The notes beneath the pieces were generated by a model. It worked only from the letters and a program-made list of their open reading frames with translations, was not told the DNA's origin and searched no databases. DNA of 64,000 bases from a phage. Position numbers and translations under genes: made by a program. This document shows positions 25,982-29,121 of the stretch, piece after piece; the stretch's first letter is position 1; the number at the start of each line of letters is the position of its first letter. The stretch lies in the sequence record PZ445443.1; one strand, written 5' to 3'.

Positions 25982-26401
25982 ATGAATATTAAATCTGATA
26001 ATCCGGCATATAGCTTTGATAACGCTTTTTGTCACGGTCCGGCGGCGAAAGGTTTTGAAATTGATGGTAAACTAGTTATTGTCAATGTTGACGGGGAAGA
26101 GGTTGCAGTGTATCCGGTGGCAGACGTTAAAAGCCGTTTACAATGCCGCATCGATGTTACCGCATATCAGCTTGATCCGGTCCGCGTAGTCTCCCTGGTC
26201 CTGGAGGAAGAAATCAAAGCAATGCACCACAGCAATAAGTTTATCGGTGACGCGCAAGATAATATGAAGGTATGCCGCTATAAAGTTAATGAAGTGCTTA
26301 AAGAATATGGATTTAAGGATCTGATGATCAAACGTGATGAAAAATTTCGTTATCGTAACGACCTGGCAAATCGAATCTATGAAATATACGAATCATTATA
26401 A
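25982..26401 (+). CDS. hypothetical protein
   Basis: ATG after TAAGAGGTAAA RBS; last gene of forward block. Confidence 0.55.
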   Translation: MNIKSDNPAYSFDNAFCHGPAAKGFEIDGKLVIVNVDGEEVAVYPVADVKSRLQCRIDVTAYQLDPVRVVSLVLEEEIKAMHHSNKFIGDAQDNMKVCRYKVNEVLKEYGFKDLMIKRDEKFRYRNDLANRIYEIYESL

Positions 26402-26420
26402 TTTTTTAACTGAATTATCA

Positions 26421-26444
26421 AGGGGCTTAGGCCCCTTTCTTTTT
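26421..26444 (+). terminator. rho-independent terminator
   Basis: AGGGGC-TTAG-GCCCCT hairpin followed by TTCTTTTT. Confidence 0.7.
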
Positions 26445-27052
26445 GTCTGCTCTTCCCCTACCATAAACGGCCATACATGGCAAGTGGAATAATTGACGAG
26501 CCATCAATCCCACACACTGTACAAATATACATGTAAAATAACTATTGCATAACTTTTCATTGTGTGGTAGCAGGGCCATTTTTACACGTTTTTCCTTCCA
26601 AAATTGCACGTAATGCAGCATTTGCACAAAATTTAACCTGATGCATATCTTCAATAGCTTGTCAACAACTAAAAATCTTTATAAGTCATACACTTACATA
26701 ACTACAAAAGCGTTTTCTACGTGAAAAATCGAGTATAACTATAGCCGCCAGACCTCAGAATTTACGTACGCTCGACATTCTATAGCCTGCTAAGCATTTA
26801 TTCCAACCATAGAATAACGGAATAGTCAATACCTGCATAAAATAATTATTCGTGTAAACTGCATAACATAAATCGGCCCAGGTGTCAACATTTTTCGTAA
26901 ACAGTCCGAAATTATCACTATGAGTTATCATAAACAGGGAAATCTTTAGTCGTCTAATGTTTACTGTACATTACTATACTGACTGGAATCATTAGATGAC
27001 TAAGAGAAAGATAAGAAATAATTAACAATACAATTATTTTATCTGTAACAAT

Positions 27053-27322
27053 AAGGCAACTATGCAAACGAATGGCATGGCGCGACGGAGTCGCGACATA
27101 ATATAAAAGCAGTAACCATCACCCCCGTGATAGTTTGTCTGCAAACTATTAATCAGATCATAGTTGCCTTGTATTTAGTTAATCATGACATAACAAGCAA
27201 GGCAACTATAGATCTGCTAATAGTTGCCCTGCTTTTATATTATGTCATAGAAACACCCGAAGGGGTGACCAAAGGTCACCTGGCATGGCCAGTGAAAGAT
27301 TATTAACTTGCTAATAGTTATC
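27053..27322. repeat. array of 11 bp motif AAGGCAACTAT in both orientations (about 5 copies)
   Basis: AAGGCAACTAT at 27053 and 27199; reverse complement ATAGTTGCCTT at 27160; close variants at 27220 and 27314; flanked by duplicated GCAAACGAATGGCATGGC (27064, 27325). Confidence 0.6.
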
Positions 27323-27354
27323 ATGCAAACGAATGGCATGGCTGATTATCGGTG

Positions 27355-27440
27355 TGTAAACAGTCAATCATGTAAATGGTTAGCATGTGAACAATCAGGA
27401 ATGTAAACAATCCAGTGTGTAAACTAATAGGTGTGTAAAA
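27355..27440. repeat. six phased TGTAAAC-like repeats at about 16 bp spacing
   Basis: TGTAAAC 27355, TGTAAAT 27371, TGTGAAC 27386, TGTAAAC 27402, TGTAAAC 27418, TGTAAAA 27434. Confidence 0.6.
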
Positions 27441-28029
27441 GTGTCATGTTGTGTCAGTTAGGTCACATTATGTCATATTGTGTCAGACAAGTTTTTCTCC
27501 TCTTTGTCAAGTGCTGCATGAAAAATTTACAATCTGGTATGGTAGCATTTTTGCGGCCCTGTTTACATTCAGGGGTGTATGTATAATCCTTGTTGTGTGG
27601 GCGTTTAGACGTCTGGACGGTCAGAAGTCTGCAGGTTAATATCTAATCTATTGGCTGCTAACTATATCCCACACAAATAGTAAGAAATATGATTGTTATA
27701 TGCGTAAACTGTAACTCATGTTATCAATCCCTGTATGTATCGCCAGTGGTGCGCATAATGGGTATTATGTTAAATTGCCCGTAATGATAAAGGTTCTCAC
27801 AATGATAGGTATTCTCATTCACCCCCACAAAATAGATTGCAAATGTTGTGCCACTGTGTGAACGGCCTAGCCTATTAATTTGCCTCACTGCCTCGATATT
27901 TGAGAATTGTTATAAGAATGAGAAGTATTCCCATTTCGTCCGCCTGGCAGCACTCCTGTAGGTCAGGTCAAAATCGTGGTAGAACTGGACCTGTTCAGAT
28001 ATTTCTGGCTGACTCTTCAGGTCTGTGTG

Positions 28030-28555
28030 GGAAAAGCCAACCTCTCCGGCGGGGCAGGGGATAGGTCAATTAAAAAATTTACGTGGTGTATGAAGCGCTC
28101 TTCAGGTAAGGCAGGTATTATGGGATGAAACCCTCTTCAGGCAATGATATTTGTGGGTGTGATATTTGCTGGAAAGCCAGATATGACGGGACTCCCGGCG
28201 GGGCAGGGGTGGTACAGACAGGGAAAATATGAAGGATGTGGTTGGGTAGATTGATCAGACAGGTAGAGTATGGAATATGTTACAAGTATGTTAAATATGG
28301 AGGTTGAATATCTGTAGGATTTGTGTGTAAAATCAAAGACTTAAGTGGTGTTGTGGTATTTTCTATAAATAATTCAAGTTTAATAGGTGATATTTGTCTC
28401 TATCCGCTTTGTGTGGTAAACAGATTCAGATGAGATTGGTTTACAAGTGTATACATAATATACAAATTAAAGATACAAGAAACCCCCCTCCCCCTTCGGC
28501 TACCATTCACCTTTTCCTCTGACTGGTACTTAAACACTTATTCAGACTCTTCAGG
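28030..28555. repeat. dispersed direct repeats CTCTTCAGG (x4) and CCGGCGGGGCAGGGG (x2)
   Basis: CTCTTCAGG at 28030, 28115, 28150, 28547; CCGGCGGGGCAGGGG at 28063 and 28212, each preceded by AAAGCCA. Confidence 0.55.
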
Positions 28556-28905
28556 TTATCACCTATATATCATATGGCAGTGACTGGTGTCCTCCGGCCC
28601 CTCTTTCGTCACCCGTCCGCTTCGCCATGCTAATGCCATAGCCAATGGTTCGGTTGTTCACCCTGTTCACTCAGGTGTATCTCCATACCCCTTCAAACCG
28701 AAGAGAACAGAAAACCCGAATTACTCGGTAAAAGAAAAGAGAAGAACTTAATTTTATCAGGATAGGCAAGAATGTCAAGGCATGACTGCTCACTAAACAA
28801 GCAAACAGTCATGTGTGGGAGGTAAGTGATTGTGGTGGTAGGAAATTTAGTTGAAAGATGTGTTATAGGTGCTTCCAGCACTTTAGCCGGGCAGCTAATT
28901 GTGTG

Positions 28906-29121
28906 TCAGTCCAGCGGTTCATCCTCTACTTCACTGAAATCAATGTTCATGGTCTCCTCCCAACCATCGATCTCAGCACAAGAGTGGAGTTCTTTAGGGT
29001 TTACTCCCAAAGCCTCAGCAACAGAGTCTATATTTAACACCTCTGGCAGGTATGATTCATCAAATTCAAGGTAAATCAGGCCACGAGTGTTGTCAGCCCC
29101 ACCAAATATTTCTATCTTCAT
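28906..29121 (-). CDS. hypothetical small acidic protein (MKIEI-type N-terminus)
   Basis: ATG after AGGAGA RBS; last gene of reverse block. Confidence 0.5.
   Translation of the reverse strand: MKIEIFGGADNTRGLIYLEFDESYLPEVLNIDSVAEALGVNPKELHSCAEIDGWEETMNIDFSEVEDEPLD

Follow-up and report, generated by a model that had tools for sequence, protein, structure and literature searches.

Phased TGTAAAC-like repeats beside the inferred terminal-repeat boundary of a Vequintavirus genome are putative iteron-like binding sites of a packaging region

Introduction

What purpose might be served by six copies of a TGTAAAC-like heptamer, placed every 15–16 bp in a part of a phage genome that contains no genes? 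The window analysed here, a stretch of 64,000 nucleotides of phage DNA (sequence record PZ445443.1), carries such an array at positions 27355–27440, and a first-pass annotation had taken its strict phasing as a sign of cooperative protein binding or DNA wrapping. The 1.8 kb around the array matches 120 phage records with 90–96% identity, nearly all of them Escherichia Vequintavirus, and by its sequence the window is assigned to Vequintavirus, the rV5-like myoviruses (~137 kb) infecting E. coli. Nineteen GenBank records labelled 'Campylobacter phage' (MG0656xx, host C. jejuni, unannotated) are 92–95% identical to the region and are probably mislabelled or contaminant assemblies.

Phages of the rV5-like type find wide use in the biocontrol of E. 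coli O157 and in therapy collections, and many Vequintavirus records are still treated as circularly permuted. In the rV5 genome paper the zone around the array is drawn as a grey 'non-coding' box with no function given, the replication origin could not be defined and the genome was assumed to be circularly permuted (PMC3606486). A search of the literature on the origin, repeats, non-coding region and terminal repeats of rV5 and Vequintavirus found no description of the array.

Results

Six TGTRAAH units are clustered and phased

The array at 27355–27440 consists of six direct TGTRAAH units on the + strand, which start at 27355 (TGTAAAC), 27371 (TGTAAAT), 27386 (TGTGAAC), 27402 (TGTAAAC), 27418 (TGTAAAC) and 27434 (TGTAAAA), and the spacing between successive units is 16, 15, 16, 16 and 16 bp. 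The six positions that had been reported at first pass were borne out, all being on the + strand and 15–16 bp apart. The narrower pattern that was given with them, TGT(A/G)AA(C/T), describes five of the six units and fails for the last; unit 6 (27434) is degenerate, ends in A, lacks the extended core found in the other units and overlaps the start of a second array of TGTCA units.

TGTRAAH occurs 43 times on the + strand of the 64-kb window, and six of these motifs fall within 90 bp at the array, compared with a maximum of 1–3 in 200 dinucleotide-preserving shuffles of the window. Autocorrelation of 27341–27445 gave a top peak at lag 16 (z = 4.1) and a weaker peak at lag 31 (z = 2.3). In a sliding scan the lag-16 signal over 27340–27480 was the strongest in the gene-free zone (z up to 5.2). 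Because the coding background in the same scan sometimes equalled the array, reaching a maximum z of 5.3, the significance is carried by the clustering of the motif and not by autocorrelation alone. The TGTRAAH array was not reported by Tandem Repeats Finder, which found only a 10-bp array at 27441–27485; it was missed because its spacers differ. The earlier claim that the phasing was more than chance is upheld by the shuffles, which never exceeded three motifs, together with the lag-16 peak. The array is real, and neither its clustering nor its 16-bp phasing is due to chance.

Secondary structure was absent from the single strand of the array (DNA fold z = +0.47) and an Rfam search of 26300–29100 returned no match at E <= 1, on which grounds an RNA element was rejected. 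A coding sequence was also rejected, since its indels (10, 15 or 16 bp) do not keep to multiples of three and the variable sites have no 3-periodicity. With no strand structure, no Rfam match and no coding periodicity, the array is taken to be an element of double-stranded DNA.

The array lies in a conserved gene-free zone

The gene-free zone in which the array sits is ~2.5 kb long (26400–28900). To its left are + strand genes, with a terminator at 26420, and to its right are − strand genes; transcription therefore converges on the zone. In an alignment of 20 genomes the zone was 90–100% identical to the window outside two hypervariable islands, 27251–27325 and 27351–27475, the second of which is made up of the arrays. 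Identity returned sharply to 92–99% at the repeat boundary, and no other part of the gene-free zone is as poorly conserved as the arrays. Over ~2.3 kb (26476–28750) the variable sites had no codon periodicity and Rfam gave no match; as this DNA is nevertheless conserved, it is constrained as DNA or as an unknown RNA and not as protein.

No Pfam family scored above threshold in the nine ORFs flanking the zone. A flanking DNA-binding gene was rejected on this basis, and the 'FtsK translocase' label carried by some records was unsupported. The last ORF before the zone, 25982–26401 (139 aa, no Pfam), has ~91% protein identity in Phapecoctavirus, which belongs to another subfamily, and 87–88% in A73 and A5-4; unrelated DNA follows its homologues in those other phages, and the comparison suggests that the ORF has been exchanged as a module. 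Only three GATC sites are found in 26400–28950 (2.55 kb), compared with ~14 expected from the 346 in the 64-kb window. At the right of the zone a near-consensus sigma-70-type promoter sequence is located on the − strand at 28751–28778 (TTGACA, 16 nt, TAAAAT, with TG; 11/12). It is directed leftward into the zone toward the terminal repeat, and no ORF and no known RNA was found downstream of it.

A second array, an anchor and a palindrome accompany the units

The TGTCA array occupies 27441–27485 on the + strand and comprises (R)TGTCA units at 27442, 27452, 27462, 27471 and 27481 with a period of 9–10 bp, the unit at 27462 being a GTCAC variant; Tandem Repeats Finder scored it as period 10 with 4.6 copies. 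Immediately 5' of the TGTRAAH array is a conserved anchor, ATGCAAACGAATGGCATGGC (27323–27342, + strand), which repeats, perfectly and in direct orientation, a 20-bp first copy at 27062–27081.

The two anchor copies bracket a large imperfect palindrome of ~150 nt (27096–27246; DNA fold z = −8.76), which has a 17-bp perfect outer stem and holds GGCAACTAT motifs, and together they form a 261-bp module (27062–27342). Phage FV3 has the array without this module, its first anchor copy running straight into the repeats; the array can thus do without the palindrome, which is regarded as neighbouring context. The module resembles an insertion or deletion between direct repeats. The GGCAACTAT 9-mer is present in four copies, two per strand, at 27055–27228 and nowhere else in the 64 kb, and a related palindrome, AATAGTTACctattGTAACTATT, lies in the Mydovirus phage KPP-1 ~90 bp from its own repeat boundary. 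The GGCAACTAT and AATAGTTACctattGTAACTATT sequences are possibly a third putative binding-site family common to both genera.

The arrays abut the inferred terminal-repeat boundary

The GenBank record of the Vequintavirus phage Gotham has identical 459-bp repeats at both ends. These ends were defined from a region of 2x coverage in a TruSeq library, and the authors stated that the packaging start is the same in all virions (PMC7471380). The annotated Gotham repeat_region aligned to 27486–27944 of the window, a segment that is 89–100% conserved in relatives, and the boundary fell exactly after the last TGTCA (…ATTGTGTCA|GACAAGTTTTTCTCC…). The terminal-repeat boundary, or maturation cut, is placed by this homology at 27485|27486 (…GTGTCA|GACAAGTTTTTCTCC…), and the last TGTCA unit ends at this site. 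As the homologue of the terminal repeat is present once, the window spans the concatemer-junction form.

A second phage with mapped ends gave a concordant picture. In Klebsiella phage KPP-1 (Mydovirus) a terminal repeat of 514 bp is supported by 2x coverage and a PhageTerm 'T7-type' call (PMC9862379). This phage belongs to the same subfamily, its terminal repeat lies at the same convergent junction and its two boundaries align with both of those in Gotham and the window, KPP-1 GGTGCTA|GACGGAC corresponding to window GCTGCCA|GGCGGAC and KPP-1 CTTGACAAGGAGAGAGAATTGTGTT| to window CTTGACAAAGAGGAGAAAAACTTGTC|. Read from outside to inside, all four boundaries follow the pattern TGYYA|RRC, with GTGTCA|GAC and GCTGCCA|GGC in the window (sites 27481–27488 and 27942–27953) and GGTGCTA|GAC and ATTGCTA|AAC in KPP-1 (locus L012; sites 2010–2019 and 2528–2537). 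The pattern at one end of each repeat is inverted relative to that at the other, as staggered nicking of opposite strands would require, and TGYYA|RRC, a short motif, is a candidate consensus for the nick site. With boundaries of the form TGYYA|RRC, the TGTCA array amounts to the outer half of the cut site, repeated in tandem.

Gotham and KPP-1 are the relatives in which physical ends have been mapped, and the corresponding positions in the window follow by homology. In version 2 of the bov11CS3 phage record both ends fall exactly at 27944|27945; this record may have been oriented on Gotham, and its support for the boundary is weak. Two other reports describe Vequintavirus genomes as permuted or headful (Nextera libraries; CheckV 'DTR' plus PhageTerm with defaults). 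Metagenome contigs gave no proof of a physical end, as five contigs matched and none of the five ended at the boundary. On the homology with Gotham and KPP-1, both arrays would directly abut the terminal-repeat boundary of the phage chromosome, and this adjacency to 27485|27486 is the key context that the first-pass annotation lacked.

Two further features were observed within the terminal repeat. A 16-bp direct repeat in two copies, AGACGTCTGGACGGTC and AGAAGTCTGCAGGTTA (27580–27640), yields a second lag-16 autocorrelation signal. A AATGAGAA(T/G)(A/T)ATT-type motif is located at 27913–27930, and also at 2414–2467 in L012, at 53–75 in locus L032 and at the end of locus L034. Motifs of the AATGAGAA type lie in or near the terminal repeats of Vequintavirus, Mydovirus (KPP-1, two copies), Justusliebigvirus (BME3) and Phapecoctavirus (Schickermooser) and may represent a conserved repeat element of the wider rV5-like group. 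Beyond 27945 there was no phased array, just scattered CTCTTCAGG copies and a two-copy 35-bp repeat.

Relatives keep the unit and its period, not its number

The segment from the anchor to the boundary was compared in 21 relatives, and a common layout was found in which the anchor is followed by GTRAAC units, in some by a short palindrome, AATAACAnnnGTTATT, and then by TGTCA units. The 61 distinct units from these relatives share the core RYGTRAAC(A)RT, in its fuller form RYGTRAAC(A)RT-n-A-R. The core carries 1–2 bits of information per position and three to four spacer positions carry 0.06–0.18 bits; a T at core position 9, which is outside the search seed, was present in 59 of the 61 units (1.76 bits). 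Spacing is 15–16 bp, or 30–32 or 48 bp where a unit has decayed, all units point the same way and the two arrays always stand in the same order with respect to the boundary.

The number of GTRAAC units varied from 1 to about 11. FFH2, CM1, EmilHeitz, RudolfGeigy and bov11CS3, all of them viable phages, have a single unit, and ~11 units are found in typing phages 4 and 5, the latter being essentially rV5. Between relatives the indels correspond to whole units (15–16 or 30–32 bp), and in some phages a palindrome module is substituted. TGTCA copy number ranged from 1 to 5 and all arrays end TGTCA|GACAAG. No relative lacks a GTRAAC unit after the anchor, nor the TGTCA at the boundary. At orthologous units in six array-rich relatives, variable columns made up 26% of the core and 38% of the spacer (p = 0.14).

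With regard to conservation of the same array in related phages, the core and the 15–16-bp period are kept, and the number six is not; the 'strict' phased set of six seen in the window is not a conserved feature of the relatives. From these alignments, it is judged that relatives have maintained the motif in the long term, with its period, its orientation and a minimum of one copy, and that the copy number is fluid. Phased GTRAAC/TGTCA arrays were not found at the corresponding place in KPP-1, Schickermooser (Phapecoctavirus), A73 or BME3 (Justusliebigvirus), although the BME3 record, with its overlapping ends, could not be interpreted, and a search of IMG/VR for further relatives gave three loci only.

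Discussion

Putative binding sites at the concatemer junction

The explanation we favour, tentatively and at somewhat less than an even chance, is that the TGTAAAC-like repeats are putative iteron-like binding sites of the concatemer-junction or packaging region. The unit looks like a protein-recognition site, with a conserved core, free spacers and a fixed period, and the explanation is supported by the fixed position of the arrays against the cut and by the fact that the proximal array repeats the outer half of the cut motif. Confidence is limited because no Pfam family matches the flanking ORFs, phages with one unit are viable, such arrays are lacking in KPP-1 and the ends were mapped in relatives.

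The GTRAAC and TGTCA arrays would form the unique-sequence flank of the terminal repeat, so that the order along the concatemer would be unique DNA, GTRAAC array, TGTCA array, cut, 459-bp repeat, second cut and unique DNA. A phage maturation or packaging protein would load on the repeats, the obvious candidate being either the small subunit of the terminase or an accessory factor for end processing, and once loaded it would position or stabilise a nick at the last TGTCA|GAC. A matching inverted nick at the far boundary, with strand-displacement synthesis, would duplicate the repeat, as proposed for T7. Whole units would be gained and lost because the arrays are tandem and lie beside a recombinogenic DNA end, and the minimum kept by all relatives would be one GTRAAC unit and the boundary TGTCA. 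That a protein binds, which protein it is and how it is linked to cutting and packaging are steps that we infer.

The two periods have different consequences for such a protein. The 10-bp TGTCA array would be expected to put its sites on one face of the helix, as for a small-terminase ring, and the 16-bp array, which alternates faces, would suit a different protein or a zig-zag assembly. The proposal of cooperative protein binding that accompanied the first description can be kept in part. The unit is iteron-like, its core being conserved over 61 units, but a six-site cooperative complex cannot be essential, because relatives carry from 1 to ~11 units. Simple DNA wrapping on one face is less favoured; 15–16 bp is ~1.5 helical turns, successive sites lie on opposite faces and a zig-zag or filament fits better.

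Several observations count against the packaging explanation. The array is found on one side of the repeat only, the contrast between core and spacer at orthologous units is non-significant (p = 0.14), the arrays are the least conserved sequence in the zone and a multi-site array is dispensable in viable phages. A more elaborate version of it, which we regard as doubtful, is that both arrays are the Vequintavirus signal for packaging or terminus definition, in which TGTCA, as repeated copies of one half of the nick site, would load the terminase, GTRAAC would bind a second protein and copy number would tune the outcome. The second phage protein would form a polar filament toward the cut on the GTRAAC array, and copy number would act as a fast-evolving knob that sets how efficiently DNA is packaged or how co-infecting relatives are told apart.

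Alternative explanations

The array may instead be a tolerated minisatellite, in which function rests with just one GTRAAC site and the boundary TGTCA, or possibly with neither, and the additional copies are functionless expansions generated by slippage or unequal crossover that the adjacent double-strand end promotes. This we consider unlikely, and it accounts well for part of the data: the copy number of 1 to ~11 with whole-unit indels of 15–16 or 30–32 bp, the arrays as a hypervariable island amid a zone that is 90–100% conserved, the weak difference between core and spacer at orthologous units and the viability of single-unit phages. Of the features of a VNTR, whole-unit polymorphism (16 or 32 bp indels) is seen here, and even divergence over the unit is not. 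Neutral decay of a duplicated 16-mer should be uniform along the unit, whereas the information in these units is strongly uneven; paralogous units keep a core of 9–12 nt, including positions outside the seed, with randomised spacers. The period, moreover, is held at 15–16 bp in all lineages, and long arrays persist in several divergent lineages.

Binding of a host or phage protein, either a transcription factor or a nucleoid protein, which would control a promoter or would organise or protect the entering DNA end, is improbable. A promoter-like sequence, TTGTCA-18-TACAAT, is located on the + strand at 27504–27533 (10/12), where the terminal repeat starts, 20 bp beyond the arrays, and both hexamers recur in KPP-1 with a different spacer; however, the −10 hexamer ends in G in Gotham and in A in KPP-1, and neither a conserved ORF nor an Rfam RNA was found downstream. 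The half-site resembles the boxes of TyrR (TGTAAA), CpxR (GTAAA) and PhoP (TGTTTA, on the other strand), but 16 bp is unlike the 10–11 bp of response-regulator boxes, and host-factor boxes were rejected for the array, in which a TyrR palindrome, pho-box spacing, an IHF site and a DnaA cluster are all absent.

Replication-origin iterons, at which a phage or host initiator would bind the repeats and open nearby AT-rich DNA, are very improbable, since the origin iterons of lambda, P1, F and RK2 have a period of roughly two helical turns and that of the array is 15–16 bp, some relatives have a single copy, FV3 lacks the palindrome module, the nine flanking ORFs (no Pfam above threshold) include no initiator-like gene and there is no DnaA-box cluster, the one DnaA-like 9-mer, TTTTACACA, overlapping unit 6. 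What speaks for an origin is that none is defined for rV5 (PMC3606486), that direct repeats sharing a core lie in a long stretch without genes, that an 80% AT stretch (27000–27040) and a large palindrome are nearby, and that T7 has its secondary origin phiOL annotated just beyond the left-end repeat array. The nearest stretch of at least 80% AT is ~300 bp from the array, and the features of origin iterons that were looked for were absent. Against an origin, too, transcription converges on the zone and the change in GC skew there follows gene orientation (PMC3606486).

Implications

At the boundary, the array would offer a concrete candidate for the maturation or packaging site and a rational way to orient and close Vequintavirus assemblies, and as a hypervariable locus it is usable for strain typing. 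It also provides a second, independent system for asking what the arrays adjacent to the T7 terminal repeats do. If the packaging-signal explanation is true, it would be the first sequence-level model of end-marking in a large myovirus with T7-style short repeats and would supply a testable function for SRL arrays of the T7 type.

Comparison with known systems

The arrays resemble the origin iterons of plasmids and phages in being non-coding direct repeats whose core is conserved and whose spacers are free, and differ from them in a period of ~1.5 helical turns and in having no adjacent initiator gene, DnaA cluster or unwinding element.

A parallel may also be drawn with terminase sites. Reiterated motifs near the cut are known from lambda, P1 and SPP1, and wrapping of DNA on small-terminase rings has been proposed. 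Like cosB R1–R3 of lambda, the pac hexamers of P1 and the pacL boxes of SPP1, the units described here are copies of a short motif within ~150 bp of the cut (27355–27485, against the inferred cut at 27485|27486), and the proximal TGTCA array has the period of one helical turn that is proposed for DNA on small-terminase rings. No small terminase gene was identified in the window. Those phages have cohesive ends or headful packaging, in contrast to the short direct repeats found here, and the copy number here is not fixed.

The greatest likeness is to the SRL and SRR arrays of T7, also present in T3, in which a direct-repeat core with variable spacers lies in unique DNA beside a short terminal repeat. 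In the T7 sequence, read directly, the terminal repeat is nt 1–160 and 12 CCTAAAG heptamers follow from nt 173 to ~340 with a spacing of ~12–13 bp, and a similar array precedes the right-hand repeat. We know of no established function for SRL and SRR. In both systems the arrays are non-coding and in a single orientation; many units of the same orientation are present, and adjacency to a terminal-repeat boundary is indicated in the window by homology with Gotham. Arrays on both sides of the terminal repeat, as in T7, are not seen, two motif families in tandem (GTRAAC and TGTCA) being found on one side only. There is no sequence similarity between the two, the core here is 9–12 nt with a period of 15–16 bp, the phage is a 137-kb myovirus whereas T7 is a podovirus, and copy number is highly polymorphic within the genus. 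The analogy with T7 is thus one of architecture.
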